Program-made: the position numbers and the translations under genes | Shown here: positions 21,633-39,786 of the stretch, one piece after another | How the letters are laid out: every line of letters begins with the position of its first letter | Numbering within the stretch: position 1 is the stretch's first letter | Notes under the pieces: model-generated | The model's input: only the letters and a program-made list of their open reading frames with translations | What the model was told of the DNA's origin: nothing | The model's database searches: none | Virus record (IMG/VR): IMGVR_UViG_3300032318_001790 | Location: 1 to 39,786 of that record | DNA: 39,786 bases | Source of the DNA: a virus | Taxonomy: Duplodnaviria; Caudoviricetes | Reading direction: 5' to 3' (one strand)

Positions 21633-23546
21633 TTATTCTAATTGGCTATGATACAATAAAATTGCAGTCTTATAATCTAGTCCATATTCAGCGGCAATTT
21701 CATTAATTCTTTCCATATTTACACTTACTTGAACTGGTTTATTAATATAATCATTGATTTTATTTAACCATTCTTTTGGAACTTCATTGGTTGCAATTGT
21801 TTCAGCAATTGTCTCGATAATTTCTTTTTGTTCTTTTGTAAGTCTTTTACGATTGTATTTTTCTTTTAAAGCCGTTTCTACGCCGACAACAAGGTTATCA
21901 AACTTAACTAAATTTTTAGCAACAAGGTCTGCATTAATTTTAGGTTTTGGCTCCGATGCTTTTACAGCGGTAGGCGTTGATCTTGGGGCCTTTGTTGTTT
22001 GTGGAGTTCCTGTTCCAGTGGGGCGACCCGTCGATTGTTGTTGCGGTTTATTTAATAGCGGCTGATACAAACCATCATCTTGAAGTTTTTGAAACCCCTT
22101 TTGAGATTCTACGCTTTCTTCCGGTAGGGGTAGTCTTCCAGTGTCTATTGCTGTAATGCCCTCTTCTGGAGTAAGTACTCCAAGCTCGATAAGTCTTGAA
22201 TAAACGCGCGTTAAGTTTGCATCGCTCTTAAAGTCGGCATCCTTGAAACGTGCTGTTGGTAAGTTTTTAAAACCAAGATTTCTTCCAATTTTTTTCATCT
22301 CTGGCATCAAAAAGTCGTGCATGAAAGTTTCGCGCGCATGTTTTAGACGAGATAAGAATACTTCAATTTTTGTATTCGTATTCGCGTACTTCTCTTCTCC
22401 GAAAAGAACATTGTTAAGACCGTAACGAATGTCACGATCTACAACTTCATATTTTTTAGGATCCAAAATGCTACTAATCTCTGGAATAATAAACTTAATA
22501 TTTGTAGTATAGTCGGTAACTAAAATACGTCCAACGCTTTCGTTTTCAAATATTTTTCTCAGCGTTCCAATCTGATCTTTGGTAGGCATACCAACTTCAT
22601 CATTTCCCATCGTAACTAGCAGCACTGTTTGCTGTATGGTGCGACTAATTGCCATATCCATATTTTTAAGCTCTTGCTTATAATTGATATCTTCAAGAAC
22701 TGGGAAACCCATTGGCACACTAAACGGTTCGTAGTCTTGTTTTTTATAAAAAATAGGTACAAATCTTTCTGGTTCTAATTCAAAAATCATATATTGATTA
22801 GACTGTGTGATACTACTTGTATTTTTTAAATCTTTTAAATTCTTTACTTTTTGAGCAAGCTCTTTATCCTGATCATTTTCCGGATTAGTTAAAATTTGCA
22901 TTTCAAAATCGTTCAACACTTTTACATATTGGGGAGTTACAAATGAAGCAGATCCAATAGCCTGAATATCTGCAGGATTTAAAATAATATACCGAACTGG
23001 AATCTCTCCAGCGCGAGCCTCTGTTGTAATTAAATCAGAAAGAACTCTCATGTCCTGTTTTGTAAATTGGGCATTTAATTTATAAAGAAATACATTCCCA
23101 CTACGGAAAAATTCTCTGAAGAACATGTCCTGTAAACGCCATAAGTTCACCCTATCGGCCCATGCTTGGAAAAACTTGCGAGACTGTTCGTTCCCGCCCG
23201 TAAAATAAATTGGCGAACAACTAAATTCGGTCATTAAGTCTATAGTATTTCTAAAAATAGAAAAATTGTAATAAGCTTTTTGGCAAAGAATAATAGTATC
23301 TTTAATGCTTATATTAGAAGTATATTTACCATACCCACCACCATAAATAAAAGGAATAACGCCGCCTTCAATATTTTTATACTTATCAGTTCTAGAAATC
23401 GTTGAAGATCTGTTCCTTCTTACGGAGGTGTTCACCTCTCCTCGACTAGCTTTGACTTCTATAGTGTCTTTTGACTTTATAGATCCTTCAATTACCTGCG
23501 GTTCTGGGAATTTAATATTTTTATTATTATTGTTGTTACTCGCCAT
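21633..23546 (-). CDS. Portal protein
   Basis: 637 aa directly after terminase; IFRNTIDLMTEF, REFFRSGNVF, KKQDYEPF..P patterns fit a portal. Confidence 0.75.
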   Translation of the reverse strand: MASNNNNNKNIKFPEPQVIEGSIKSKDTIEVKASRGEVNTSVRRNRSSTISRTDKYKNIEGGVIPFIYGGGYGKYTSNISIKDTIILCQKAYYNFSIFRNTIDLMTEFSCSPIYFTGGNEQSRKFFQAWADRVNLWRLQDMFFREFFRSGNVFLYKLNAQFTKQDMRVLSDLITTEARAGEIPVRYIILNPADIQAIGSASFVTPQYVKVLNDFEMQILTNPENDQDKELAQKVKNLKDLKNTSSITQSNQYMIFELEPERFVPIFYKKQDYEPFSVPMGFPVLEDINYKQELKNMDMAISRTIQQTVLLVTMGNDEVGMPTKDQIGTLRKIFENESVGRILVTDYTTNIKFIIPEISSILDPKKYEVVDRDIRYGLNNVLFGEEKYANTNTKIEVFLSRLKHARETFMHDFLMPEMKKIGRNLGFKNLPTARFKDADFKSDANLTRVYSRLIELGVLTPEEGITAIDTGRLPLPEESVESQKGFQKLQDDGLYQPLLNKPQQQSTGRPTGTGTPQTTKAPRSTPTAVKASEPKPKINADLVAKNLVKFDNLVVGVETALKEKYNRKRLTKEQKEIIETIAETIATNEVPKEWLNKINDYINKPVQVSVNMERINEIAAEYGLDYKTAILLYHSQLE

Positions 23547-23588: not shown

Positions 23589-25490
23589 TTAAATTAATTC
23601 TGCAACGAATTCAGTGTTTCTTTTTGCAAAATTCTCTGGGGCCATTATATCAAAATAGGCTTTAACGCCCCAGTTCCCCAACATTAGAGTGGTATAGTTA
23701 TCTTTTCTAGCTCTATTAATACTTGTAGACTTCTTTAGATGGGATGGCAAATCAAAGCTTTGGGTACCTCTTGAGGTTGTAGTAACTTCAACATTGGCGC
23801 ACTGGTCTTTAGTATCTTGAATAATAAAATCTTGTTGTTCGATGAATTCACGAACGGTCAATTTCTTTGTTTCATATTCATTATCGGCTTTTTCCCCAAT
23901 ACCTCTAGGGTAGATATACTCCATAGGAAGATTCATTGTAAAAATATTTTCTAATATATCTGGGTGGTTACTAGCTCTAGAAGCAAACCATATTTTTTTA
24001 TGGTCAATACAGGTTTGTAGGTAGGAGTTAGCTCTGCCCAAAAAGAAACTGGTAAAATATTGTTTAATACATATATTTCCAAAATCTTTATTATATTGAC
24101 GGGCGCAATCTTTTAACATTTTAGTATAATCTTCGTTTTCTTTATCGGACTCAAAATCGACAAAGCCAATTTTACGATTTATATCTTTAAAAAATTGAGA
24201 ATTGTTTACCGCGTCTATAAACGTGTCAGCACCAGCATGGTCAATTACAATTAGCGCAATATTAAAGTTTTTATATAAATAATAAAAATATTTTATATGA
24301 TCTTGTAGCGAAGATCCCGCCGCCTGATAACCATGAACTAAAATTCCCTGCTTTTTCTCTTCATCTATTTCAACTACGCTCATAGCAAAATAGTCCGCAC
24401 CCTTTGACGAAGAAAAGTTTGGATCGATAGATATAATATATTTTTTATCTGAATCTCCGATAACTTTAGTTGTTGGATATTCACCGTCTGGGATTGTACA
24501 GTCGTGCATTTTTTTAGGTGAAAAATAACTGTCACCACCATCAATAAAACGCGCACAATATTCACGAAGAAAAGAGTGGTGAGAACTTCCCCCGCTTTTA
24601 GCAACTTGAATTGCACCTTGGTCTACCATATGCGGCGGTAAAGCCTCATAACCTAACTGTGAAATAAAATAAGTTCCTGGTAATTCCCCCTCTTTACTAT
24701 CTTGGGCTTCTGGGTTTTCAATTAAATGCGACCACTGTTGATAAACACGAAACAAATGTTCAAAAGTATAACTTGCCGAACTTAAACATAACATTTGAGA
24801 TGTATTTTCAAAAATTTGTTTATTGTCTGGATGCAATAGTCCCTTTTTAATTAATTCATCTTCTAATTTTCTAGTACGAATTCTTTCTCCAACATCTCGT
24901 GGAGAACTCAAGAACGGAATGAGAACGTTGTCAATAATATCTGGTGGCAACAATAAAAACTCATCAAGGATAAGAACGTTTGCACGAATACCACGAATTT
25001 TTTCTCCAGTCAATGGGATTGCCGTAATGCTTCCCCCATTAACTTGCCATTCGTATTGGTCGTTACGTTTGCTTTTTAATCCAAAACACTGGCTAGCTAA
25101 AGCCGCTTGTGGAGAACTCAAGAATTTTTCGATTTCATTAAATACGCGGCGACTTGTACGAAAGTTAATTGAGGCAATCAATATTTTCGTTCCAGGTTCG
25201 AACATGCACTTTAATATACAATAAATTGCAGCACAAAAACTTTTTGCACAACCGCGACCCCAAATAAGCATACAATAATTCCTATTAAAAAAAGAATTTA
25301 ATGTTAACTCTTGATAAGACTCTAGAGTTAACCCTAATGCTAAATCCGTAGTAAACCCTAAGTTATAACGCAAGAACTTAGCTAGAGAAACTCTTGCCTC
25401 TTGGTCTGTTAAATCTCCTTTTAACTCGGAAAGCTCCCTGTTAGTGTCAACAATTAGCTTTTTATTTTGATCTCCTACTATAAGGGCCAT
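23589..25490 (-). CDS. terL: Terminase large subunit
   Basis: Walker A GRGCAKS, RGIRANVLILDEF Walker B, LSSA motif III, FLREYCARF, RNase H-like ISIDPN and C-terminal KDNYT. Confidence 0.9.
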   Translation of the reverse strand: MALIVGDQNKKLIVDTNRELSELKGDLTDQEARVSLAKFLRYNLGFTTDLALGLTLESYQELTLNSFFNRNYCMLIWGRGCAKSFCAAIYCILKCMFEPGTKILIASINFRTSRRVFNEIEKFLSSPQAALASQCFGLKSKRNDQYEWQVNGGSITAIPLTGEKIRGIRANVLILDEFLLLPPDIIDNVLIPFLSSPRDVGERIRTRKLEDELIKKGLLHPDNKQIFENTSQMLCLSSASYTFEHLFRVYQQWSHLIENPEAQDSKEGELPGTYFISQLGYEALPPHMVDQGAIQVAKSGGSSHHSFLREYCARFIDGGDSYFSPKKMHDCTIPDGEYPTTKVIGDSDKKYIISIDPNFSSSKGADYFAMSVVEIDEEKKQGILVHGYQAAGSSLQDHIKYFYYLYKNFNIALIVIDHAGADTFIDAVNNSQFFKDINRKIGFVDFESDKENEDYTKMLKDCARQYNKDFGNICIKQYFTSFFLGRANSYLQTCIDHKKIWFASRASNHPDILENIFTMNLPMEYIYPRGIGEKADNEYETKKLTVREFIEQQDFIIQDTKDQCANVEVTTTSRGTQSFDLPSHLKKSTSINRARKDNYTTLMLGNWGVKAYFDIMAPENFAKRNTEFVAELI

Positions 25491-26427: not shown

Positions 26428-27528
26428 TTAGCCACTGACCATTTCATCAATATCAATTCCACGAATAACGGCTTTTAATTCGTCCATCGAAGATAAACGT
26501 TTTGCCTCTTCTTCTAGATTTTGTTTTTGCGCCTCTGCTAAATTGATAATACTCTTTCGCCGCTCCTCGTCTTTCCACGCCTGTACTAAATTTAAGATAC
26601 TAGCGTTTTCCTGTCTACGGTCCTGCATTTTTTTAGAACGATCATCTACCAAGGATTTATATAGTTTATTCTGTCTAGTACGACATTGATTGTATTCTGT
26701 TTGTAAACTACTAATAGCTTCATTCAAACTCATTTTGATATTCCGACCCTCGTCTTCTTCGGACGCCGTTCTTAATAGCTGGCGCAAGTCTTCAACCTGT
26801 TGTAAAATACTTGAAGCTGTAACTGTTTCAGTACAAAGAGTGATAAACTGATCCAATTCTTCCTGAGTAAGATCATCTTTATCATAAGTATAACGAATAA
26901 AAGCATCCTCAAAAAGTTTTCTATCATCCTCTCTTTTATAAGTATTAATTTGATAACAAAAACTAAAAGTATTCATATACCTTTGCAGGGTTTCTACCTG
27001 TTTGAGTTGAGTGGCTTTTAGTTTACCCTGCTCCCACCCAATATTAAGATATTTATTAATTCTATAAAGCGTTTGGTCAAGACGTCTTGGTGGAAAATAT
27101 TCTCCCATAGGCCCTGGAGCTTGATTCTCTGTGGGGGCATAAGTTTTCATCTCAAGATACGTAGGATCACTTTTTTGTATTTTTTCTACCAACTTGTTAA
27201 CCTCTCTAGACTCTAGACTTAAATGCGTTAAATTATTATTTTTAAATAAAATTTTAGCCATATCTAAGTAGTGTTGATTTTTATAGTTATTCTTTATAAA
27301 CTCTTCATGTTCAGCGGTTAAAGAAACCCTGTCTCTTTGGAATACAGATCTATTTTTATATTCTATATTGTTATCTAATAAAAACTGTTTTAGAGCCCTA
27401 CCCTCTTTGCTTCTACTATCAACCGTTTCATTTTCATAAGCATAAGCCGTAATTTCAGTTAAAGTTGCGTCTGGATTTTTTTGCAATATTTCTTTTACCC
27501 TATTTTGCTGTTGTTGATCAAGTTCCAT
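26428..27528 (-). CDS. Hypothetical helical protein, candidate terminase small subunit
   Basis: 366 aa, HTH-like N-terminus and coiled-coil C-terminus, two genes upstream of terL; function from position only. Confidence 0.45.
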   Translation of the reverse strand: MELDQQQQNRVKEILQKNPDATLTEITAYAYENETVDSRSKEGRALKQFLLDNNIEYKNRSVFQRDRVSLTAEHEEFIKNNYKNQHYLDMAKILFKNNNLTHLSLESREVNKLVEKIQKSDPTYLEMKTYAPTENQAPGPMGEYFPPRRLDQTLYRINKYLNIGWEQGKLKATQLKQVETLQRYMNTFSFCYQINTYKREDDRKLFEDAFIRYTYDKDDLTQEELDQFITLCTETVTASSILQQVEDLRQLLRTASEEDEGRNIKMSLNEAISSLQTEYNQCRTRQNKLYKSLVDDRSKKMQDRRQENASILNLVQAWKDEERRKSIINLAEAQKQNLEEEAKRLSSMDELKAVIRGIDIDEMVSG

Positions 27529-28232
27529 TAGACGACCTCCTTTACAATTTCGCGCGCTTTTTGTAGAATGCGCGATTTAATTTTACTAATTTGTCTATAG
27601 GCTGGGCGGCCCTCTTTCAAACTTAGTTTGTAACCCATTTTCTTAGCAACCTCCGAGTCATCAAAATGTTGCAAGAACATATAATCATATACTTTCCATT
27701 CTATATTGCTTAAATGTTTTTTCATCATTTCGTGGAAAAGCGGCATGAGGTCTTCTATATTTATATTATTTTCAGTATCGTGCAAAACACTTTCTAATGT
27801 TGTTTCTGGATTGTCATGGTTAGGACTGTGCATACTTAATGGGAATTTAACATCATAGGCGGACTTTTTACTTTTCTCCCACTTCTTATAGTCTTTGCAG
27901 GAATTATTTTGTGAACCATAAATAGAACAACCGTACTCGCCAGTATTAAATGGGCACTTTAGGCAAGGCCTAGAGAAATTCGAATAATGGTTTCTTAGCA
28001 TGTTTGTCATCTGGTGGTTGATAACCTGATTAAGCCATGGCCTTAAAGGTCTTTTACAATCCCATTTCTCCCATTTCTTATAAATATGTAATCTTAATCT
28101 TTGGGACACATCGTCAAAATCCATCCATGCGATAGCTGTTAAGTGCCAACGGTGTTTACGTTTTTGAATTTCAGAATTGATAATATCTATCGACTCTTCG
28201 AAGGTGGGCCTTACAACTTTTTTGGAAGGCAT
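27528..28232 (-). CDS. Phage RNA polymerase sigma factor (sigma70/ECF-like) with Cys4 insertion
   Basis: Region 2 DFDDVSQ...WD..RPL.PWL..VI.HQM.N.LR; region 4 LS.IE.KV.......DDSEVAKKMG...ISKIKSRILQK; CLKC...C...C insert. Confidence 0.75.
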   Translation of the reverse strand: MPSKKVVRPTFEESIDIINSEIQKRKHRWHLTAIAWMDFDDVSQRLRLHIYKKWEKWDCKRPLRPWLNQVINHQMTNMLRNHYSNFSRPCLKCPFNTGEYGCSIYGSQNNSCKDYKKWEKSKKSAYDVKFPLSMHSPNHDNPETTLESVLHDTENNINIEDLMPLFHEMMKKHLSNIEWKVYDYMFLQHFDDSEVAKKMGYKLSLKEGRPAYRQISKIKSRILQKAREIVKEVV

Positions 28233-28235
28233 ATA

Positions 28236-28640
28236 TTATTCTTGATTTCTAGAAAGCCCGGCTTCTTTTTGAAATTCTTTTAAGATTTGCTCTTTTGTTT
28301 TCTTTTCATTGTTGGGATTCTCTTGTGTGAAATCTATTTTCTGAGAGGGGTTGTCAATCAAACTTCCAAACGATTCGCCCTTTGATTGGTAAAGGTCTAA
28401 TTTAAAAGAGGCTTTTACTTTTTTAAAATCGATAGTTGGAATTTCCTCTTCATCGTAAGTCTCTTCATCATAACGGTTTACATTTTTCTTTAATTTTAAT
28501 TCATTTAAAAACTTTTCAGTCTTAGATTCCTGTTTTACTACAGGTTTTGAAGCGAAAGCTTGGCCGCAACAAGAACAGAACTTTGGAAGTTCAAAATTAT
28601 ATTCGGTAGTCTTACCACATTTTGAGCAAAAGTATTTCAT
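28236..28640 (-). CDS. Zinc-ribbon protein
   Basis: FCSKCG...PKFCSCCG at N-terminus. Confidence 0.75.
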   Translation of the reverse strand: MKYFCSKCGKTTEYNFELPKFCSCCGQAFASKPVVKQESKTEKFLNELKLKKNVNRYDEETYDEEEIPTIDFKKVKASFKLDLYQSKGESFGSLIDNPSQKIDFTQENPNNEKKTKEQILKEFQKEAGLSRNQE

Positions 28641-29315: not shown

Positions 29316-30041
29316 TTACTTTTTAATATTTTCGAACTGTTCGATAATATAGGACAGAATTTCAGATCTTACGATATCTTCCTTGCCGAATTCAAAAGTG
29401 TGGATGCCGCGTTCTTTAGCGCAATCTTTATCGAACAAATCAAACACTTTATTAAACCCACTTTGTTTAATATCTGACTGTTGAGCATCTCCACAAATAA
29501 ATAGCGTAGAAAAGTTTGCCATACGTGTCATTACTAATAAGAAGTCTTCGATACGGCAATTTTGCGCCTCGTCCATTATAAAGCTGGCATTCGAAATGTT
29601 TAAACCTCTTAAAAATCCCAATGGCACACCAACTATCCTTTCGTCCATCATAAGGGCCTTAACATGTGGGATGGGCAACAATTCATTTAGTTTGTCTACA
29701 AGTGGCTGTGTGTATGGTGACATTTTTTCTTCAGAGGTACCTTTAATATAACCAATTCCGTGAACTGAAGATTCAACAGGCACGCGGCTATAATATATTT
29801 CGCTAGACTTCTTTTCCTTGATTTTCCTTAATGCGCAGTAAACGGCCAAAATTGTTTTGGCGGTGCCAGCAACACCTCTAAGGATAACGACTTTAGTTTT
29901 TTTATCTAAAGCAAGATTTATAAATTCTTTTTGTTTATCTGTCCATGGTAATTCACGAATATTTAAATCTATAGTTGTTTTAGTTTTTTTCTTCTCCGTG
30001 TACGGAGAAACATCGCGCGGGGTTTCTTTTTTAGACTTCAT
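29316..30041 (-). CDS. phoH: PhoH-like ATPase
   Basis: GVAGTAKT, SRVPVE, IGYIKG...EKM.PY, PLGFLRG, DEAQN, GDAQQSD, DIVRS. Confidence 0.93.
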   Translation of the reverse strand: MKSKKETPRDVSPYTEKKKTKTTIDLNIRELPWTDKQKEFINLALDKKTKVVILRGVAGTAKTILAVYCALRKIKEKKSSEIYYSRVPVESSVHGIGYIKGTSEEKMSPYTQPLVDKLNELLPIPHVKALMMDERIVGVPLGFLRGLNISNASFIMDEAQNCRIEDFLLVMTRMANFSTLFICGDAQQSDIKQSGFNKVFDLFDKDCAKERGIHTFEFGKEDIVRSEILSYIIEQFENIKK

Positions 30042-32438: not shown

Positions 32439-32763
32439 GTTAAATTAAACTTATAGAAATAAAATAGGCCCCCGAATTTTTTAGATTTGATTATTATTAT
32501 TTAAACTCATTTGTCCCCGAAGTTCTAGAAAAGGGTGGGGGGTACATATATATAAGAATAGGGATGTTTATACATAAACATAGTAATATGTATATAGAAT
32601 ATAGACTTATAAGAATAGCGGGTTAAATTAAATTAATTAAAATAAAAGATGAGGAGATTGAAATTTCACCCCCCCGGACCTAAAAAATCAAACGCTTGTT
32701 CGAATTTTCTCAAAAATAGGGGGGGCATCAACAAAAATACTTTGCAGAATCGTAAAAAAATCC

Positions 32764-32791
32764 TTGTGTTTTGGCCGTCCTGTGGTAGAGT
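32764..32791 (+). promoter_or_regulatory. Leaderless sigma70-type promoter P1
   Basis: TTGTGT-N16(TGTGG)-TAGAGT, 6 nt to ATG 32798, A-tract upstream. Confidence 0.7.
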
Positions 32792-32797
32792 GTAAGC

Positions 32798-32974
32798 ATG
32801 ATTAAGAACCAATACAGCACAGCAGAGTTGACCGCCGCCCTTGGCAATCCCTACTTCGTCGGCCTAAACCTTCGCGTTTGGAGAGTCGCAACGAAACGCG
32901 GATCCTACGAGTTCAAAGCCAGCCGCACCCCAAGGACTGACTTCTGGAGCGTCAACAAAAAAAAGTTACGCTAA
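32798..32974 (+). CDS. Small early protein, family A (58 aa)
   Basis: Not in ORF track; MIKNQYSTAEL...LNLRVWRVATKRGSYEFK...; paralog of 34949-35131. Confidence 0.8.
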   Translation: MIKNQYSTAELTAALGNPYFVGLNLRVWRVATKRGSYEFKASRTPRTDFWSVNKKKLR

Positions 32975-32988
32975 TCGAAAAAAATCCT

Positions 32989-33016
32989 TTGACTTTCGCC
33001 GCAACTCTGATACATT
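32989..33016 (+). promoter_or_regulatory. Leaderless promoter P2
   Basis: TTGACT-N16(TGA)-TACATT, 6 nt to ATG 33023. Confidence 0.75.
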
Positions 33017-33022
33017 AAAAGC

Positions 33023-33208
33023 ATGAAAAAGAAAAACACCTACAAAGTCACCGCATCAATCTCCAACGACATCGGTTCATACCCTCTACCCGTTACGTTA
33101 GAAGTTGCCGCCTATGGCATCGGTTGGATCTCCCATGAGGTTGAAAAAGCTTTGAACGTGAATCTCCCCTTCGACGGCGAGATCATAAAGATCGAAAAAA
33201 TCTCTTGA
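33023..33208 (+). CDS. Small early protein, family B (61 aa)
   Basis: YKVTA...YGIGW...EIIKIEKIS; paralog of 35391-35570. Confidence 0.8.
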   Translation: MKKKNTYKVTASISNDIGSYPLPVTLEVAAYGIGWISHEVEKALNVNLPFDGEIIKIEKIS

Positions 33209-33232
33209 CTCTCACGATAACTCTGATACATT
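33205..33232 (+). promoter_or_regulatory. Leaderless promoter P3
   Basis: TTGACT-N16(TGA)-TACATT, 6 nt to ATG 33239; -35 contains the upstream TGA stop. Confidence 0.75.
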
Positions 33233-33238
33233 AAATAC

Positions 33239-33466
33239 ATGAATACATACGAAAAATACTTCACCTATCAAGGCTGCGAATACTACCTCTGCACAGAGTA
33301 TGCGTTCGATCATGCCGATCAACTGCAACTCTCTGACTTCTCCTTGCAGAGAGATGGCGACGAAGTCTCGCAAGAGAGCTTCGAAGCAAACCAAGGGCTC
33401 TATGACATTGTCTGCGAGATCCTTGCTAACGAAGATGCTGTCTGCTATGGCGGCGCACCTTGCTAA
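33239..33466 (+). CDS. Small acidic early protein (75 aa)
   Basis: ORF at the fixed distance from P3. Confidence 0.75.
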   Translation: MNTYEKYFTYQGCEYYLCTEYAFDHADQLQLSDFSLQRDGDEVSQESFEANQGLYDIVCEILANEDAVCYGGAPC

Positions 33467-33484
33467 CACTATAGAACATTCTGT

Positions 33485-33658
33485 ATGACAAAGATACCTC
33501 TCAACATGGATGCTCGTTCACTCGTAAAGGAAATCAATCGCAGCAAGCGCAGGACTATGACAAAGCGCACTATGACAAACAATGCTATGACATACATTGG
33601 AGAGGCCCTTGCCGTGGTGCTCATCTTCATGCTTGGCGTTGCGATCCTTTCTCTGTAA
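33485..33658 (+). CDS. Small early protein, family C, with C-terminal TM helix (57 aa)
   Basis: Not in ORF track; MTKIPLNMDARSLVKEINRSKRRT...ALAVVLIFMLGVAILSL; stop lies inside element E1. Confidence 0.65.
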   Translation: MTKIPLNMDARSLVKEINRSKRRTMTKRTMTNNAMTYIGEALAVVLIFMLGVAILSL

Positions 33659-33732
33659 GCTGTTGTAAATCAACGACTTACGACGGAGGGCCGGGCGCGC
33701 GAACGTAACCCCTTGATAATCAAGCACTTACG
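33654..33732. repeat. 79-bp double-palindrome element E1 (core inverted)
   Basis: tgtaagctgttgtaaatcaacgacttacg + acggagggccgggcgcgcgaa + cgtaaccccttgataatcaagcacttacg. Confidence 0.95.
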
Positions 33733-33743
33733 AATAGGTGCGA

Positions 33744-33772
33744 ATACTACCACAACACGCACAAGATGTCAA
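33744..33772 (-). promoter_or_regulatory. Reverse sigma70-type promoter facing E1
   Basis: Minus strand TTGACA-N17(TGTGG)-TAGTAT; predicted +1 near 33737. Confidence 0.6.
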
Positions 33773-33816
33773 GCAAAAAAGATAAAAAAAATTTCACATA
33801 ATCGTAAAAAAATCCC

Positions 33817-33844
33817 TTGCTTTTTGCGCGTCTTGTGGTATTCT
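33817..33844 (+). promoter_or_regulatory. Leaderless promoter P4
   Basis: TTGCTT-N16(TGTGG)-TATTCT, 6 nt to ATG 33851. Confidence 0.75.
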
Positions 33845-33850
33845 GTATAC

Positions 33851-34123
33851 ATGAAAAAAGAAATAAACACCATAGAAGAAGCCAAAAACCTGTCCGTCAT
33901 GGACTTCATGGAACGCACTCCGTTGGAGCGTAAGCTGATCGACGAACTCAAGCGCGTCGAATCCCAAGTCGAACTCTTGCAAGAGTGGCTCGAAAACTCT
34001 CACAGAACGTGCGGCCTGTTGCGTGATGCGCGTGACAGCTATCGTCGTCAACTCGGCATCTCGTCCGATTGGGACACGATGGAATCAGTCCGTGACAAAT
34101 ATGACGCCAGACATGGCGGCTAA
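33851..34123 (+). CDS. Small coiled-coil early protein (90 aa)
   Basis: Start moved from 33713 to ATG 33851 on promoter spacing. Confidence 0.75.
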   Translation: MKKEINTIEEAKNLSVMDFMERTPLERKLIDELKRVESQVELLQEWLENSHRTCGLLRDARDSYRRQLGISSDWDTMESVRDKYDARHGG

Positions 34124-34132
34124 AAAAACTTC

Positions 34133-34161
34133 TTGCCTAAACTCTCAACTCAACCTATCCT
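34133..34161 (+). promoter_or_regulatory. Leaderless promoter P5
   Basis: TTGCCT-N17-TATCCT, 6 nt to ATG 34168. Confidence 0.65.
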
Positions 34162-34167
34162 AACAAC

Positions 34168-34383
34168 ATGAACATCATCAACGACGACTTCAATACGCAA
34201 CCGCAATCCGACGAATACGCTACCGAGCACGAGGACGTGCGCGGCACGTTCGCCGTCGAACCTGCCGTCGAGCAGGAACCGGAACCGCAACCCTACGATG
34301 GGTGCGAGGGCCAATGGGCTGGCGATGGGTCGGGCTTCGACGACCTCGCTGACTTGGGCGAGCAGGAGGGTCACGACTGGTAA
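34168..34383 (+). CDS. Very acidic small protein, family D (71 aa)
   Basis: IINDDFNTQPQSDEYATE motif shared with 38370-38504. Confidence 0.8.
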   Translation: MNIINDDFNTQPQSDEYATEHEDVRGTFAVEPAVEQEPEPQPYDGCEGQWAGDGSGFDDLADLGEQEGHDW

Positions 34384-34387
34384 CACT

Positions 34388-34618
34388 ATGACACAAAACG
34401 AAAACATCATGAAATCTCTGCACGCGCTTGCCAAGCAAGAGCAAACTTTGCAGGCTCAAGAGGCTGAAATGACAGAGCTAAAAAATCTTTTGTCTCGCGC
34501 CCTGTATACTATCACAGCACACGAATACAAGCTGAACATCCTTTGCGAAACCAACATTGTTCTTTCGCGTGAAGTGCAAGCAATGCGCGATCAGCAATTT
34601 TCTTTCGGAGTCAACTAA
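34388..34618 (+). CDS. Small coiled-coil protein (76 aa)
   Basis: ATG 4 nt after previous stop; MTQNENIMKSL... Confidence 0.7.
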   Translation: MTQNENIMKSLHALAKQEQTLQAQEAEMTELKNLLSRALYTITAHEYKLNILCETNIVLSREVQAMRDQQFSFGVN

Positions 34619-34619
34619 C

Positions 34620-34772
34620 GTGAGCAAAATAATTATGACAATCGACGTGCGCCCACTCGCGCGCGAGATTGAGCGCAGCGTTCGAAGGACGACTTGTCGT
34701 CCTTCATTCGCCATGCGTGTCAAGAAAAAATTCGCGCGCAAGGCAAAGTTTTTTAGCGGTTGGTCTGAGTAG
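34620..34772 (+). CDS. Small basic protein, family C (50 aa)
   Basis: GTG start; SKIIMTIDVRPLAREIERSVRRT resembles 33485 ORF; stop overlaps start of E2. Confidence 0.6.
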   Translation: MSKIIMTIDVRPLAREIERSVRRTTCRPSFAMRVKKKFARKAKFFSGWSE

Positions 34773-34849
34773 TAAAGCGTTGAATATCAACGACTTACGG
34801 CGGCGCGCCCCGCCGCGCGACATAAGTGCTTGAAAATGAACGACTTATG
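34771..34849. repeat. 79-bp double-palindrome element E2
   Basis: agtaaagcgttgaatatcaacgacttacg + gcggcgcgccccgccgcgcga + cataagtgcttgaaaatgaacgacttatg. Confidence 0.95.
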
Positions 34850-34859
34850 CAATATGCTA

Positions 34860-34876
34860 CGCAAGTGCCATGCCAA
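34860..34876 (-). promoter_or_regulatory. Sigma54 -24/-12 promoter facing E2
   Basis: Minus strand TTGGCATGGCACTTGCG; exact GG-N10-GC spacing; +1 at 34849. Confidence 0.7.
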
Positions 34877-34914
34877 CTTTGCCAAAAGCGCAAAAATAAA
34901 AATAAAAAAATCCC

Positions 34915-34942
34915 TTGCGTTTTTGCAGTCCTGTGGTATTCT
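34915..34942 (+). promoter_or_regulatory. Leaderless promoter P6
   Basis: TTGCGT-N16(TGTGG)-TATTCT, 6 nt to ATG 34949. Confidence 0.75.
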
Positions 34943-34948
34943 TTAACC

Positions 34949-35131
34949 ATGAAAAAGAAATACTACACCAGCGCGGAAATCATCGAGTTCGCCACAAAAA
35001 ACAGTGCGGCTTGCGCGTTCGCCTCTTTGAGTTTGCGCGTGTTCAAATACTGGACGGCGAAAGGTTCTTACGAGGTCAAATTCCATCGGGTTGAGCCGTT
35101 GGTCTGGCAAAAGAAAATCGTAAAGAAATAA
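34949..35131 (+). CDS. Small early protein, family A (60 aa)
   Basis: Start moved to ATG 34949; YTSAEI...LSLRVFKYWTAKGSYEVK. Confidence 0.8.
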   Translation: MKKKYYTSAEIIEFATKNSAACAFASLSLRVFKYWTAKGSYEVKFHRVEPLVWQKKIVKK

Positions 35132-35140
35132 AAAAACCTG

Positions 35141-35169
35141 TTGACAAAATCAATCCTCTAACCTATTCT
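35141..35169 (+). promoter_or_regulatory. Leaderless promoter P7
   Basis: TTGACA-N17-TATTCT, 6 nt to ATG 35176. Confidence 0.8.
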
Positions 35170-35175
35170 TTAACT

Positions 35176-35355
35176 ATGAAAAATAAAACACCACAAAAAA
35201 GCCAAATCTGGAAAGTCGGAACGCGCTGCTTCCGCATAGTGCGCATCGAAGGCGGTCAGGCCGTTGTGCGCCATCACGAAGAATTCGGAAAGTTTTTTCT
35301 GAATGACTTGCGCCCTGCAAGTGCCGAAGAAGTTCGCGCATACTTCAAAAAATAG
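35176..35355 (+). CDS. Small early protein (59 aa), SH3/beta-barrel-like pattern
   Basis: Not in ORF track; MKNKTPQKSQIWKVGTRCFRIVRIEGGQAVV...LRPASAEEVRAYFKK. Confidence 0.75.
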   Translation: MKNKTPQKSQIWKVGTRCFRIVRIEGGQAVVRHHEEFGKFFLNDLRPASAEEVRAYFKK

Positions 35356-35356
35356 T

Positions 35357-35384
35357 TTGACAAAACAGATTTTTCTGATAGATT
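35357..35384 (+). promoter_or_regulatory. Leaderless promoter P8
   Basis: TTGACA-N16(TGA)-TAGATT, 6 nt to ATG 35391. Confidence 0.75.
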
Positions 35385-35390
35385 AAAAGC

Positions 35391-35570
35391 ATGAAAGAGA
35401 AAAAATCCTACATGGTAACGGCGCGTGACTCACGCGAAAAAGAAATCGTTCACACCACGACTGTAAAATCATATGGTATCCGTTGGGCGATTGAAGATGC
35501 CTCAAAAGAGTTTTCGGACACTATTCCAGAACCCTTCATCGAAATCGTGAAGGTTGAAAAAATCTCTTGA
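35391..35570 (+). CDS. Small early protein, family B (59 aa)
   Basis: Not in ORF track; MKEKKSYMVTA...YGIRW...EIVKVEKIS. Confidence 0.8.
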   Translation: MKEKKSYMVTARDSREKEIVHTTTVKSYGIRWAIEDASKEFSDTIPEPFIEIVKVEKIS

Positions 35571-35602
35571 CCCTAACCACAAAAACAAACAAAATAGAAA
35601 CC

Positions 35603-35692
35603 ATGTCAATCTGGATACCACTCTTTTACCTGTGCATCATGCCTGCCGCTTGCGGTTTCTTAATCCTCTGGGCTGATTCCAGAAAAAAATAA
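35603..35692 (+). CDS. 29-aa single-TM peptide
   Basis: MSIWIPLFYLCIMPAACGFLILWADSRKK after weak promoter TTGACC-N17-CAAAAT (35567-35595). Confidence 0.55.
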   Translation: MSIWIPLFYLCIMPAACGFLILWADSRKK

Positions 35693-35696
35693 TCTC

Positions 35697-35927
35697 ATGA
35701 AAAAATACATCACATTCGACAATATGCTTTTGGCAACAAGTGCTGCCCTCATCTTGTCCCTGCTAACTTCACTTCTGGTCATCGCCGTTGCTTCACAGCA
35801 AAAATGGTTCGATACTAATCACGAACTTCAAAACGATGTCCAAACAATGTTTGAGCATCTTGAAAAACCGCTCGCCATGAATACCTCTGGCTATCCCTCC
35901 TACCCAAATCATCCCAAAAATGCCTAA
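35697..35927 (+). CDS. Small membrane-anchored protein (76 aa)
   Basis: N-terminal hydrophobic helix. Confidence 0.7.
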   Translation: MKKYITFDNMLLATSAALILSLLTSLLVIAVASQQKWFDTNHELQNDVQTMFEHLEKPLAMNTSGYPSYPNHPKNA

Positions 35928-35935
35928 ACAATAAT

Positions 35936-36142
35936 ATGATAACACCAAACATCCAAAGAGCCCTCGAATCAAACGGCGTTCGTTTCTATGCCAAAGACTT
36001 CCTCATGGAAGGAATGCGGAAAGACTGCGTTGACGCTGTGCATGACGCGCACCTTGTTTACAAGTTGCTGAAAGAACGCATGGAGAAAATGCTTGCCATC
36101 GAACCCACTGAATCCGAACAGCAATACCCTCAACACTCATGA
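35936..36142 (+). CDS. Small early protein (68 aa)
   Basis: In operon, ATGA overlap with next gene. Confidence 0.7.
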   Translation: MITPNIQRALESNGVRFYAKDFLMEGMRKDCVDAVHDAHLVYKLLKERMEKMLAIEPTESEQQYPQHS

Positions 36143-36330
36143 ATAAAAAACAAATCATCACCGCGTGTGACGCGTCAAACAGTGTCATACAAAAAATTAA
36201 ATCTGCGCTGGGCCTTCAGAAAAAAGAGCCATCGCTTCTTTGTCATAGTCTCGCGCACCTCAACGGCGCGACATGGCTTGAAAGAATCTCGTCAAATGGA
36301 ATCTTGAACGAATACATCGTAAGACGCTGA
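36139..36330 (+). CDS. Small early protein (63 aa)
   Basis: Stop TGA inside E3. Confidence 0.6.
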   Translation: MNKKQIITACDASNSVIQKIKSALGLQKKEPSLLCHSLAHLNGATWLERISSNGILNEYIVRR

Positions 36331-36396
36331 TAATCAAGCACTTACGGCGGCGCGCCCCGCCGCCCAGCGTAAGTCGTTGAAAATCAACACGTTACG
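36318..36396. repeat. 79-bp double-palindrome element E3
   Basis: cgtaagacgctgataatcaagcacttacg + gcggcgcgccccgccgcccag + cgtaagtcgttgaaaatcaacacgttacg. Confidence 0.95.
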
Positions 36397-36406
36397 CAAA
36401 ACATGG

Positions 36407-36423
36407 AGCAGGAACCGTGCCAA
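36407..36423 (-). promoter_or_regulatory. Sigma54 -24/-12 promoter facing E3
   Basis: Minus strand TTGGCACGGTTCCTGCT; +1 at 36396. Confidence 0.75.
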
Positions 36424-36501
36424 CAATGAGTGTCATAAAAATTCAAACGCCTGTTTGAAAAACGTCAACAAAAATACTTTCAGCTAATCGAAAAAAATCC
36501 C

Positions 36502-36529
36502 TTGTGTTTTTGGCAACCTGTGGTATTCT
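36502..36529 (+). promoter_or_regulatory. Leaderless promoter P10
   Basis: TTGTGT-N16(TGTGG)-TATTCT, 6 nt to ATG 36536. Confidence 0.75.
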
Positions 36530-36535
36530 TTAATT

Positions 36536-36775
36536 ATGAAAGTTACCAAAGTCGAACTACTCGACGCACTACTACAAGCTCGCACCGCTCTTGCAAAAGA
36601 CATTAGCGACTTTAACAAAAGCCGCAACGGATTCTTTGCCAAAGAATTTCGCGCTTCACTCCGCGAAAAAATCGCGGCTCATCGTATCCTTTCCCACATC
36701 GACACGATTGACGCTGAACTCTATTCGTTCGACGCTCGCACCCGCGCAAGGGTCAAAAAAGCTCTTGCCAAGTAA
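36536..36775 (+). CDS. Small basic helical protein (79 aa)
   Basis: ORF at the fixed distance from P10. Confidence 0.75.
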   Translation: MKVTKVELLDALLQARTALAKDISDFNKSRNGFFAKEFRASLREKIAAHRILSHIDTIDAELYSFDARTRARVKKALAK

Positions 36776-36800
36776 GGCAAACTCTGCAAAAATAAACACC

Positions 36801-37481
36801 ATGAAACTACTCGCAACCAACACCAAATTGGAAAAGGGCGCAAGCTACGGCTGGCGCACACTCGGACTCTCACTCTCTCCCGCCAGTAAAAGCGGAAAAC
36901 AATTCTGTCCGCATCGTTCTCCAGGGTGTGAATTTGTTTGCCTTGATGAATCGGGCATGGGCATTTTTCAGAACGTGCAAGACGCACGCCTTGCAAAATC
37001 GCGTTACTTCATCGACAACCGCAACACATTTGTCGCGCAATTAAACCGCGAGATTCACAACGCAGAAAAACTTTCCACGCGCACGAAAATTCCCGTTGCT
37101 GTTCGTCCGAATGTCTTGTCTGATCTTCCGTGGCATAACCTCATCGACATGGCGCGTTTTCCTTCCATTCAGTTTTACGACTACACGCCGAACCTTGAGC
37201 GCATGATGCAATTCCTGCGCGGCGAGTTGCCGAAAAATTATCATCTTACTTTCTCGCGCAAGGAAAATAATCAGCACAAGGTTCATGCTGTCATCGCGGC
37301 TGGCGGCAACGTGGCCGTGGCGTTTAATCGCTTACCGGAAACATACCTTGGCTTGCCTGTCATCGACGGCGACAAAAGCGATCTGCGCTTTCTCGATCCC
37401 AAAGGTGTCATAGTTGGACTCAAAGCCAAGGGCAAAGGTAAAAAAGATGCCTCTGGATTCGTGGTGCAAGTTGGCGTATAA
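36801..37481 (+). CDS. GP88-family protein (Cys-cluster, radical-SAM-like), 226 aa
   Basis: Start moved to ATG 36801; NTKLEK, LSLSPA, CPHRSPGC...CL, VRPNVLSD..W, QFYDYT, NYHLTFS, IDGD.SDLRFLDP.GVIVGLKAKG recognised as the phage gene-product-88 family. Confidence 0.75.
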   Translation: MKLLATNTKLEKGASYGWRTLGLSLSPASKSGKQFCPHRSPGCEFVCLDESGMGIFQNVQDARLAKSRYFIDNRNTFVAQLNREIHNAEKLSTRTKIPVAVRPNVLSDLPWHNLIDMARFPSIQFYDYTPNLERMMQFLRGELPKNYHLTFSRKENNQHKVHAVIAAGGNVAVAFNRLPETYLGLPVIDGDKSDLRFLDPKGVIVGLKAKGKGKKDASGFVVQVGV

Positions 37482-37490
37482 TGAACACCT

Positions 37491-37562
37491 ATGGAAATAA
37501 TCTGTCTGCTTGTCGTCGTGGCGGCTTGTGCCTTTGCAATCAATCAAAATCAAAAACTATGA
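37491..37562 (+). CDS. 23-aa hydrophobic peptide
   Basis: MEIICLLVVVAACAFAINQNQKL; ATGA overlap with next ORF. Confidence 0.4.
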   Translation: MEIICLLVVVAACAFAINQNQKL

Positions 37563-37717
37563 CACTCAACCTAATCGCACGAAAAAATCTTTTCCGCTTG
37601 TCGGAAGGACTGTTCAGCCTCGGACAAAAATCGGAACGTCACGGCTTTATGACACTCTCGAAAATGTTTGTCATAGGGTGGGAGCGTTGCCTTGACTTGC
37701 GCGACAGGCTGCGGTAA
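37559..37717 (+). CDS. Small early protein (52 aa; alternative start 37481)
   Basis: MTLNLIARKNLFRLSEG...; TAA stop abuts E4. Confidence 0.55.
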   Translation: MTLNLIARKNLFRLSEGLFSLGQKSERHGFMTLSKMFVIGWERCLDLRDRLR

Positions 37718-37796
37718 CGTAAGACGTTGAAAATCAACGGGTTACGACGGCGCGCCCCGCCGCCCGTCGTAAGTGCTTGACGTTCAGCAACTTATG
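37718..37796. repeat. 79-bp double-palindrome element E4
   Basis: cgtaagacgttgaaaatcaacgggttacg + acggcgcgccccgccgcccgt + cgtaagtgcttgacgttcagcaacttatg. Confidence 0.95.
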
Positions 37797-37949
37797 CATT
37801 TATAAAAAATAGAAAATCGTCAGTAGAAATAGATAAATAATTACTATGTCTTAATTGTTACTATTTGCCCCATATCTATTTCGCAATTTTCTGGCAAACT
37901 TGTCAAGCATAAAAATACAAAAATAAAAAATAAAAATACAAAAAATATC

Positions 37950-37977
37950 TTGTGTTTTTTCAGATGTGTGATATTCT
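37950..37977 (+). promoter_or_regulatory. Leaderless promoter P12
   Basis: TTGTGT-N16(TGTGA)-TATTCT, 7 nt to ATG 37985, phased A-tracts upstream. Confidence 0.7.
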
Positions 37978-37984
37978 TTCTTTG

Positions 37985-38179
37985 ATGAATAAACAAACCA
38001 CCAAGTGCCCCAAGTGCGGGGGAAAAGCCACATCAACCTACGAGCCACCCTATCAGGAATACGCTGGAGCCAGCGTGCAGGGCGGCTACTACTACGTCGA
38101 GTGCGCGTGCGGTCACGAGGGCACCCAGAAGGCCAGCCTAGAGGACTACAACTGGCAAGAGAACACAAGGGGTTGGTAA
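37985..38179 (+). CDS. Small Zn-finger protein (64 aa)
   Basis: CPKCGG...ECACGH; stop inside E5. Confidence 0.75.
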   Translation: MNKQTTKCPKCGGKATSTYEPPYQEYAGASVQGGYYYVECACGHEGTQKASLEDYNWQENTRGW

Positions 38180-38253
38180 CCCCTTAATTCTCAATCAGTT
38201 ACGCTGGCGCGCCCCGCCGCGCGGCGTAAGTGCTTGATATTCAACACGTTACG
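38175..38253. repeat. 79-bp double-palindrome element E5
   Basis: ggtaaccccttaattctcaatcagttacg + ctggcgcgccccgccgcgcgg + cgtaagtgcttgatattcaacacgttacg. Confidence 0.95.
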
Positions 38254-38263
38254 CAAAATGTAG

Positions 38264-38280
38264 AGCAGGAAGCGTGCCAA
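38264..38280 (-). promoter_or_regulatory. Sigma54 -24/-12 promoter facing E5
   Basis: Minus strand TTGGCACGCTTCCTGCT; +1 at 38253. Confidence 0.75.
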
Positions 38281-38335
38281 GTCCGAATCTTTTTTTCGTC
38301 AACAAAAATACTTTCTAAAAATGCAAAAAAAATCG

Positions 38336-38363
38336 TTGCACTCTCGCGCCCTGCTGCTATTCT
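38336..38363 (+). promoter_or_regulatory. Leaderless promoter P13
   Basis: TTGCAC-N16(TGC)-TATTCT, 6 nt to ATG 38370. Confidence 0.7.
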
Positions 38364-38369
38364 TTACCC

Positions 38370-38504
38370 ATGCAAGCGAACTCCATCATCACTGACGACT
38401 TCAACACGCAAATCCAAAGCGACGAGTTTGCCTCGGAATTTGAGGCTTGGCTCGACGAGCAGGAACTGAAATACTGGCAGGACATCGACGCTCGCGGAAA
38501 TTAA
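38370..38504 (+). CDS. Very acidic peptide, family D (44 aa)
   Basis: Not in ORF track; MQANSIITDDFNTQIQSDEFASEFEAWLDEQELKYWQDIDARGN. Confidence 0.75.
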   Translation: MQANSIITDDFNTQIQSDEFASEFEAWLDEQELKYWQDIDARGN

Positions 38505-38508
38505 TTTT

Positions 38509-38685
38509 ATGACAAACACAAACCCACTCAAAGGCCTCGTCTCCGTTTGCTGCGGAGCCGAACACGACATCAACGCCGAACACGGCATCAAAAACGAAAC
38601 CGCAATCGGTGGCTGCTCGGCTTGCGGACGCTACTCGGAGTTTGACATCTTCGAGAACTTCGTTGAAAACAACCTTGACCTCTAA
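38509..38685 (+). CDS. Small Zn-binding protein (58 aa)
   Basis: Not in ORF track; VSVCCGA...GGCSACGRYSEF. Confidence 0.75.
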   Translation: MTNTNPLKGLVSVCCGAEHDINAEHGIKNETAIGGCSACGRYSEFDIFENFVENNLDL

Positions 38686-38703
38686 ACCCTCAACACCTAA
38701 ACT
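38675..38703 (+). promoter_or_regulatory. Short-leader promoter P14
   Basis: TTGACC-N17-TAAACT, 9 nt to ATG 38713. Confidence 0.6.
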
Positions 38704-38712
38704 CTAAAACTT

Positions 38713-39159
38713 ATGAACCAAGCAAACATCGTAATCAGCGCATACGGCAACGGCATTGCCGTTGGCCTTCACGGCACACGCGAAGAAATCGAAAAAAACT
38801 TCAACCGCTTCTTCAACTGGGGCGCAACTGGAATCGGAGAACTCGGAGACTACTTACACGACCTCTCGGATAACTTCTCCTACTTCCTCTCCACGGAAAC
38901 GGATATGCTTCGCGCTATGACATACGAGACTATGACAAAGTGGCAGGACTCTCCGGTAAGCGAGCAATACAAAGCGCGCCCACGTTTCTACAAGAAACCA
39001 AACGGAACAAAGTTTCGCACCGATGCCGTAGGTGCTGCGCGTGACGAATACGAATCTTTCCCGCGTGAAAGTTTCATGCTCCAGATGAAATCACCCTCAC
39101 ACATCTATCAGCAACTCGACGGCGGTGCGCCTTCGTGGAGTAGCGAAACGGAGGACTAA
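38713..39159 (+). CDS. Hypothetical protein (148 aa)
   Basis: Clean ORF after P14. Confidence 0.75.
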   Translation: MNQANIVISAYGNGIAVGLHGTREEIEKNFNRFFNWGATGIGELGDYLHDLSDNFSYFLSTETDMLRAMTYETMTKWQDSPVSEQYKARPRFYKKPNGTKFRTDAVGAARDEYESFPRESFMLQMKSPSHIYQQLDGGAPSWSSETED

Positions 39160-39162
39160 TAT

Positions 39163-39612
39163 ATGGAAATACCACCCATTAAATTATTCGATGTTATTCT
39201 TAATCCAATTCTTAAAAAATCATGGATTCATTTTGAGATTGAAGCTACGGACGAGGCAGGAAGAAAGTATTATGAAAGCTCTCATAGCTATGGCGTTTTT
39301 GCTCCTCCTTATCCTGCTTTCCCATGCTATGCTGGAGAAAATCATCTTACAAATAAACATCCTTATGGTCATACATTAGAACCTTTTGATGTTAATAAAA
39401 TAATGAGAAGACTTAACTCTTACGAATGGATCGCTGGGGTTAAATCAATTAAGTTTAGCAATCAAGTTTATGTTTGTCATAAAACTTATATTGTTTGGCA
39501 ATTTGCAAATAAAAAAGTAGAAGGAACATCCCATTTTGAAATAAAAGAGCTACCTAAAGATAAAAAAAATGTTTATGTTTGTGATGAACAAAGATATCTC
39601 TTAAGTGATTGA
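39163..39612 (+). CDS. Hypothetical protein (149 aa), AT-rich
   Basis: Clean ORF; composition differs from neighbours; stop inside E6. Confidence 0.7.
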   Translation: MEIPPIKLFDVILNPILKKSWIHFEIEATDEAGRKYYESSHSYGVFAPPYPAFPCYAGENHLTNKHPYGHTLEPFDVNKIMRRLNSYEWIAGVKSIKFSNQVYVCHKTYIVWQFANKKVEGTSHFEIKELPKDKKNVYVCDEQRYLLSD

Positions 39613-39678
39613 TAATCAAAGACTTACGGCGGCGCGCCCGGCGAATCGTCGTAAGTCATTGAGCCACAGGACTTTGTG
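39600..39678. repeat. 79-bp double-palindrome element E6 (right end degenerate)
   Basis: cttaagtgattgataatcaaagacttacg + gcggcgcgcccggcgaatcgt + cgtaagtcattgagccacaggactttgtg. Confidence 0.85.
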
Positions 39679-39786
39679 GATTATACTTTAGGGTGCTAAT
39701 CATTGAAGCCAATTTGACAATTGATTCTGCAAAGTCTTTGTTCTTATTCTTCATTTTGTTGATAAGCTGTTCCCTAATCTCTGGAT

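Follow-up and report, generated by a model that had tools for sequence, protein, structure and literature searches.

Sigma-54 (RpoN) is a tightly gated cellular promoter system, and sites for IHF are common companions of its promoters in Proteobacteria. These -24/-12 promoters, among them glnAp2, pspA and hydN of Escherichia coli, combine TTGGCAYG at -24 and TG at -14/-13 in a GG-N10-G(C) spacing with a variable spacer and a neighbouring IHF-type site. Lambda oop and P22 sar are short antisense RNAs with their own terminators, made from backward sigma-70 promoters at gene ends, and the RIP/BIME repeats of enterobacteria are intergenic sequences built from IHF-type cores and GC-rich palindromic parts. 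E. coli also has inactive, intragenic or antisense sigma-54 sites, which have a good motif without an obvious target gene, are in many cases antisense, and conserve the important positions while the unimportant ones drift (Bonocora et al., 2015; PMC4591121). In T4-like phages, the promoter-early stem-loop (PeSL) cassettes described in PMC4122927 are composites of a unit-ending terminator stem-loop and an early promoter, placed between small variable early genes in the hyperplastic regions of the genome; they occur in many copies and mark differences in gene content between relatives. Here we analyse the phage sequence of IMG/VR virus record IMGVR_UViG_3300032318_001790 (39,786 bases, estimated to be 26% complete; 'the window' below is this whole stretch), in which a backward-facing box with the build of a sigma-54 promoter, TTGGCAYG-N5-TG(C/A), is a conserved and selected part of a subset of the boundary elements of the early transcription units.

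From about position 32,700 onwards, the plus strand of the window carries small genes in successive units, each opened by a sigma-70-type promoter and closed by a copy of a repeat of about 81 nt. There are six such elements (E1-E6), three of which are accompanied by a box on the minus strand:

33656-33736, plus strand: E1, without a sigma-54-type box; a reverse sigma-70 promoter follows
34773-34853, plus strand: E2, two GTAA-N4-TTGA-N3-TCAA-N4-TTAC arms round a GC-rich core; predicted minus-strand +1 at 34849
36320-36400, plus strand: E3, predicted minus-strand +1 at 36396
37720-37800, plus strand: E4, boxless, with an AT-rich stretch after it
38177-38257, plus strand: E5, predicted minus-strand +1 at 38253
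39602-39682, plus strand: E6, closing the early region at its convergent end; boxless, and in place of its right arm there is a hairpin, CCACAGGACTTTGTGG (39664-39679), with a T-rich tail
34860-34876, minus strand: sigma-54-type box of E2, TTGGCATGGCACTTGCG, with -24 TTGGCA and -14/-12 TGC
36407-36423, minus strand: sigma-54-type box of E3, TTGGCACGGTTCCTGCT, read from the sequence
38264-38280, minus strand: sigma-54-type box of E5, TTGGCACGCTTCCTGCT, read from the sequence

The original prediction had placed minus-strand boxes at 34876-34860, 36423-36407 and 38280-38264, where all three can be read directly. It had described them as fits to YTGGCACG-N4-TTGC; the GG-N10-GC spacing is exact in all three, but each box departs once from that consensus, with T for C at position 7 in the E2 box and CTGC for TTGC in the E3 and E5 boxes. 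When the C is counted as -12 (34861, 36408 and 38265), the predicted starts fall where they had been calculated to fall, in each case on the last letter (G) of the TTAYG that ends the palindromic element, 4 nt inside the 81-nt repeat unit. A search of the window for TGGCAC-N5-YTGC with at most one mismatch gave seven matches against 2.54 expected, a number reached by 0/100 shuffles, and with the stricter pattern TTGGCA[CT][GA]-N5-TG[CA] the boxes of E2, E3 and E5 are the only matches. The three boxes are real and above chance.

Related elements were collected with a search anchored on the left arm and core, and hence blind to the box, which gave 49 IMG/VR loci; the contigs that carry them reach 178 kb, and three are complete genomes (166-178 kb). 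Running a profile built from the six window elements over the window and the fetched loci yielded 93 distinct copies of the element. The original prediction had itself named conservation of motif and spacing in homologous elements as a point on which it could fail, and both are conserved: the box is present at 45 of the 93 copies, on 15 contigs including the window, at one identical offset, with GCCA beginning precisely 18 nt beyond the 81-nt unit. In the minus-strand reading, the -24 element TTGGCA with its GG is invariant (45/45, all three window copies included) and is followed by C (35) or T (10) at position 7 and by G (42) or A (3) at position 8; TG at -14/-13 stands at the exact spacing in 45/45, and the five spacer positions and the flanks vary. 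The base at -12 is A in 25/45 and C in 20/45, TGC being found in all three window copies, and the last four letters of the box are TGAA (24), TGCG (14), TGCT (6) or TGAG (1). The 11 bases between -12 and +1 also differ at constant distance, in the window as in 45/45 related copies, which supports the selection on spacing that had been proposed.

A functionless box could be kept in this way through recent copying among cassettes, and some copies are close to one another, E3 and E5 being 80% alike across 105 nt and several of the contigs closely related. This account is very improbable in view of the 39 copies that are less than 90% alike: there the same eight positions are invariant, the five intervening ones and the flanks on either side are free to vary, and the offset is constant. 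The orientation is equally constant: in all genomes checked, with 3-6 boxes in each, the box faces into the element and is directed against the early genes. In the complete 166.5-kb relative G001 a looser pattern gave four matches, 4/4 of them at elements, where the mean of shuffled sequences was 1.1. A phage sigma factor was considered as the reader and rejected, since a complete relative has no box outside its elements and late genes are preceded by other motifs. Among the 53 close copies of the element (profile score at least 60), 36 have the box, two a reverse sigma-70 promoter and 15 neither; in 21/44 boxless copies a forward promoter-like site starts within 3-48 nt, often leaving no room for a box. 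One box, CTTGGCACGCTTCCTGCT, was found without an element (L004:1385-1420, minus-strand reading); it lies immediately beyond the stop codon of a convergent gene, into which it is directed.

In a ChIP-seq (chromatin immunoprecipitation with sequencing) set of 135 17-mers bound by sigma-54 in E. coli, positions 3, 4, 14, 15 and 16, which form the GG and the TGC, rarely deviate (PMC4591121). The phage box is invariant at positions 1-6 and 14-15 and variable at 9-13, the pattern expected of sigma-54 sites, and four of the five key positions (3, 4, 14 and 15) are invariant in it. For the fifth we tallied position 16 by hand from Tables 1 and 2 of the same paper and counted C in 125 of the 135 E. 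coli sites, A in six and T in four (PMC4591121). The A is found in the confirmed hydN promoter, CTGGCATGATTTGTGAA, which has the TGAA of the phage boxes (Table 1), and T stands at -12 in pspA and pspG (PMC4591121). As these sites are bound in E. coli, sites with A or T at -12 can be bound and can fire, though they are a small minority there and the majority here. The reading that we tentatively favour is that the box is a -24/-12 site on which host sigma-54 polymerase would be loaded backwards, starting at the edge of the element and head-on to the preceding unit.

TTGGCA also equals TTGACA at 5/6 positions, and in five copies a TAnnnT hexamer stands 16 nt further downstream (TATTCT in L001, L021 and L046, for instance), from which the box might be taken for a reverse sigma-70-type promoter with TTGGCA as its -35. 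We give this assignment very little credence and rejected it for most copies: the hexamers 16-18 nt downstream are mostly poor (TATTGC, TTTGCG, CTTTGC) and lie in a variable region, and the invariant TG, 7 nt after TTGGCA, is misplaced for an extended -10. A separate promoter of the sigma-70 type is found instead at some elements that lack the box:

33744-33772, minus strand: reverse sigma-70-type promoter at E1, TTGACA-N17-TAGTAT with TG before the -10

The same TTGACA-N17-TAGTAT, with the same facing and a T-rich tract upstream, is present at four boxless copies in four contigs, E1 included. Its -10 ends 7 nt before the element, and the start predicted for E1, at about 33737, is within about 5 nt of the equivalent sigma-54-type start at the same element edge. 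Two unrelated promoter types in the same place and orientation suggest that backward-facing loading of polymerase is itself a selected feature, and this pairing is the best internal evidence that such loading has been kept.

The element onto which the box would direct polymerase has the look of a protein-bound DNA module. Each arm holds two inverted cores of IHF type, with the GC-rich core between the arms, and in 91 aligned copies TCAA-N4-TTA is near-invariant and mirrored in both arms, the N4 being free to vary. The arms match WATCAA-N4-TTR, which we take to be the IHF consensus, and so look like IHF-type binding sites. These cores, twice inverted per arm, lie downstream of the predicted start, as had been pointed out originally. 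The proposal that each element gives rise to a structured RNA of about 79 nt found no support, as the palindromes lack base-pair covariation. In the 91 copies, 72.8% of cells are paired under a three-hairpin model, the column shuffles averaging 73.1% (393/500 shuffles were at least as high), and 69.2% are paired under a model of one long hairpin, compared with 71.9% in shuffles. Depending on the pair, the core stem is open in 16-52 of 90 copies (18-58%), and the N4 positions are unpaired in about half of copies or more. On the strength of these covariation tests we rejected a structured-RNA or cruciform reading of the element. Conserved words without selected pairing give the kind of symmetry seen in protein sites and point to a module that acts at the level of DNA rather than as structured RNA.

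A terminator scan of both strands found none at E1-E5 and only the extra hairpin at E6, and the GC core has no T-run, which indicates that the units end without a canonical intrinsic terminator. The E6 type of element, with CCACAGGACTTTGTGG and a T-rich tail as its right arm and a converging minus-strand gene, is conserved in four relatives (L002, L026, L044 and L059).

Judged by these properties, the boundary cassettes could at most be PeSL-like in their working and are not PeSL members: the phage is not T4-like, since its polymerase is of the DnaE type, it has DnaB, and its terminase shares only about 23% identity with the terminases of cultured phages, and its 'stem-loops' show neither covariation nor a T-run. 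To our knowledge, PeSLs carry no backward-facing box. The resemblance to lambda oop and P22 sar lies in a backward promoter placed immediately beyond the 3' terminus of an early gene, from which a short RNA complementary to that terminus would be made; unlike oop and sar, the phage arrangement has no conserved terminator or RNA structure, and its promoter type is sigma-54-like in most copies. RIP/BIME repeats share the mixture of IHF-type cores and GC-rich palindrome, whereas here the IHF-type arms are outside and the GC core inside, the element is phage-borne, and a scan of bacterial genomes, described below, contained just two true elements.

Several results weigh against sigma-54 as the reader of the box. 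The fifth key position, the -12 C, is A in the 25 copies noted above, and of the 20 TGC copies 14 continue with a G, seldom seen at that position in E. coli. In gene searches of the window or of five relatives, of which three are complete, the sigma-54 DNA-binding domain was found in 0/6 records (the window and the five relatives) and an HU/IHF gene in 0/5 relatives. A phage enhancer-binding protein had been suggested as something to look for, and no true one was found in these records: the PF00158 matches in relatives are in frames of about 315-344 amino acids, and the single one that Pfam annotates is RuvB-like, without activator architecture. On the upstream side the boxes fall into unrelated classes with no common enhancer-like site at fixed distance: 13 copies have the palindrome AAACG-N2-CGTTT, which stands at two distances, 11 have a TGTCAAG block and others have T-runs. 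Downstream of the predicted starts there is no gene, no conserved RNA structure and no terminator. The original statement that no open reading frame follows holds in substance, with the qualification that a mechanical list does contain minus-strand frames there, all of them within plus-strand genes:

34478-34741, minus strand: frame downstream of a predicted start
36003-36188, minus strand: frame downstream of a predicted start
37851-38168, minus strand: frame downstream of a predicted start

Protein searches likewise named no host that could supply an rpoN: terminase homologues and cluster members carry no organism names. The terminase itself is only 22-25% identical to those of Bacillus and Clostridium phages, which leaves the phage without a cultured relative and without a host, and blastn of the early region against phage records returned one irrelevant 80-nt match. 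The element pattern gave 69 matches in 185,579 bacterial genomes (596 billion bases), approximately the number estimated by hand for 17 fixed bases; the two true elements among them are on contigs of 1.2 kb and 1.6 kb from metagenome-assembled genomes labelled Alphaproteobacteria and Thiobacillus, too small for a host to be named from them. The GT9 heptosyltransferase encoded by one relative hints at a Gram-negative host, and the window stretch occurs mainly in freshwater and lake metagenomes. Four metatranscriptome runs that share words with the window proved to be assembled contigs of relatives about 90% identical to it, broken at the elements and showing neither strand nor transcript ends. 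As a promoter assignment, then, the original prediction stands in its motif and spacing and is weakened by the inconstant -12 C, by the lack of sigma-54 and activator genes in the records searched and by the lack of a common enhancer. The A at -12 in 25 copies, the lack of an activator gene, of an enhancer site and of a downstream gene, the IHF-type sites downstream of the start, the phage-borne setting and the direction against neighbouring gene flow set the box apart from glnAp2, pspA and hydN.

Much of this would be explained if the box were bound by a different sequence-specific protein, of the host or from among the small early proteins of the phage, that acts together with the binder of the arms, the likeness of the box to a sigma-54 site being coincidental. 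The rigid distance is to the element and to nothing upstream, the box is nowhere else in a complete relative, its -12 C is not conserved, the searched records hold no activator or sigma-54 gene, and there are many small early proteins of no known family among which the reader could be found. We nevertheless regard this as somewhat unlikely, because it needs a chance match to TTGGCAYG and to a TG one helical turn away, in a site that varies exactly where sigma-54 sites vary, and because the loading of polymerase is the function that these copies seem to share with those that have a reverse sigma-70 promoter in this position.

A second possibility is that sigma-54 holoenzyme binds the box and never fires, serving as an architectural partner of the bent element, as an insulator or roadblock, or as a sponge for host sigma-54 across replicating genomes. 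The lack of an activator gene, common enhancer, downstream gene and terminator is in keeping with such a dock, as is the rigid offset to an element that resembles a protein site, and most E. coli sigma-54 sites are reported to hold inactive holoenzyme (PMC4591121). The phage boxes differ from those inactive E. coli sites in being intergenic, at a rigid offset from a repeated element, present 3-6 times per genome and constantly oriented to gene units. In E. coli, according to the same source, intragenic sigma-54 binding left expression of the overlapping genes unchanged, a negative precedent for a roadblock (PMC4591121). A sponge of 3-6 sites per genome would be weak and would have no need of a fixed orientation and offset, and the equivalent sigma-70 promoter in other copies is expected to fire. 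A silent dock appears improbable on this evidence.

Returning to the reading in which sigma-54 polymerase is loaded backwards, the holoenzyme would read the box and start transcription at the very edge of the element, running head-on into the end of the preceding early unit. Firing might depend on a host activator or be leaky in the copies with A at -12, and the resulting convergent or antisense transcription could help to close or tune the upstream unit beside a DNA module occupied by an IHF-type protein. More broadly, a widespread clade of large freshwater phages may use host sigma-54 polymerase and an IHF-bent module as a mobile nucleoprotein boundary that ends one early unit and insulates the next, with the sigma-54 site sometimes interchangeable with a backward sigma-70 promoter; we put this forward as a speculative picture that is unlikely to hold. 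A full-text literature search, judged by titles and the beginnings of abstracts, produced cellular studies and no described phage use of sigma-54 sites.

If sigma-54 polymerase does read the box, a host enzyme that sits silently on DNA would serve as punctuation of a phage early programme, a new job for sigma-54, and an IHF-bent module with a backward sigma-54 site would be a new kind of transcription-unit boundary. Such a boundary would bear on the ways in which phages delimit and insulate their transcription units when classical terminators are lacking, on the abundance of 'orphan' sigma-54 sites in bacteria and on the exchange of modular early-gene cassettes. If the reader is another protein, the box still marks a rigid composite element, conserved across 15 contigs, whose binding partners are there to be found.

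The boxes of the window are each divergent from the promoter of the following early unit:

34915-34951, plus strand: early promoter after E2, TTGCGT-N16-TATTCT, 6 nt, ATG at 34949 (predicted leaderless); divergent from the E2 box
36502-36538, plus strand: early promoter after E3, TTGTGT-N16-TATTCT, 6 nt, ATG at 36536; divergent from the E3 box
38336-38372, plus strand: early promoter after E5, TTGCAC-N16-TATTCT, 6 nt, ATG at 38370; divergent from the E5 box

Between the E3 box and the next early promoter, at 36442-36459, lies a palindrome TTCAAAC-N4-GTTTGAA (core AAACG-N2-CGTTT), which recurs in 13 related copies at two alternative distances and is followed by a conserved CGTCAACAAAAATACTTTC block. 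The palindrome and this block are candidate regulator sites of the forward promoter. In nine early promoters exactly 6 nt separate the -10 hexamer (TATTCT, TACATT, TAGAGT or TAGATT) from the ATG, from which the early mRNAs are predicted to be leaderless:

32780-32800, plus strand: early promoter
33005-33025, plus strand: early promoter
33221-33241, plus strand: early promoter
33835-33853, plus strand: early promoter
34937-34951, plus strand: early promoter
35164-35178, plus strand: early promoter
35379-35393, plus strand: early promoter
36524-36538, plus strand: early promoter
38358-38372, plus strand: early promoter

Shine-Dalgarno sequences are scarce on both strands, being clear before only two of the 33 listed minus-strand genes (3158-3736 and 26428-27528); this scarcity is a clue to an unusual style of translation in the host.

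The two parts of the window also differ in composition, G+C being about 0.30-0.45 (mostly around 0.35) over 1-32,400, which holds chiefly minus-strand late genes, and 0.42-0.51 in the early region from about 32,700 to 39,700. Three genes of the late region are:

8763-9470: endolysin
23589-25490: terminase
29316-30041: PhoH

A 234-amino-acid protein of the sigma-70 family is encoded on the minus strand at 27528-28232, matched in region 2 only (24.4 bits, cut-off 24) and conserved in the relative G001; it is probably the late sigma factor of the phage. The word GTGTAA recurs 15-30 nt upstream of many late genes, with a TATAAT-like word about 8-12 nt further on, near the start codon (as before 6890-8719, 21633-23546, 28236-28640, 29316-30041 and 17869-18225), and the two words together may form a late promoter read by the sigma factor that the phage itself encodes. 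No Rfam family was found in the window at gathering thresholds and a tRNA/tmRNA search of the window found none. In the relative G001 a tRNA-like sequence abuts a copy of the element (L057:8190-8275), with a GGTTCGAATCC-type T-arm on the other strand.

Among the small early genes, diverged paralogue pairs are shared between different units (33023-33208 with 35391-35570, 34168-34383 with 38370-38504, and 32798-32974 with 34949-35131; repeat families D9, D13 and D14), which fits duplication and shuffling of cassettes. The sole early-region protein of a known family, encoded on the plus strand at 36801-37481, is GP88 (PF17338, 138.6 bits; PHROG 1617), a family without an assigned function.

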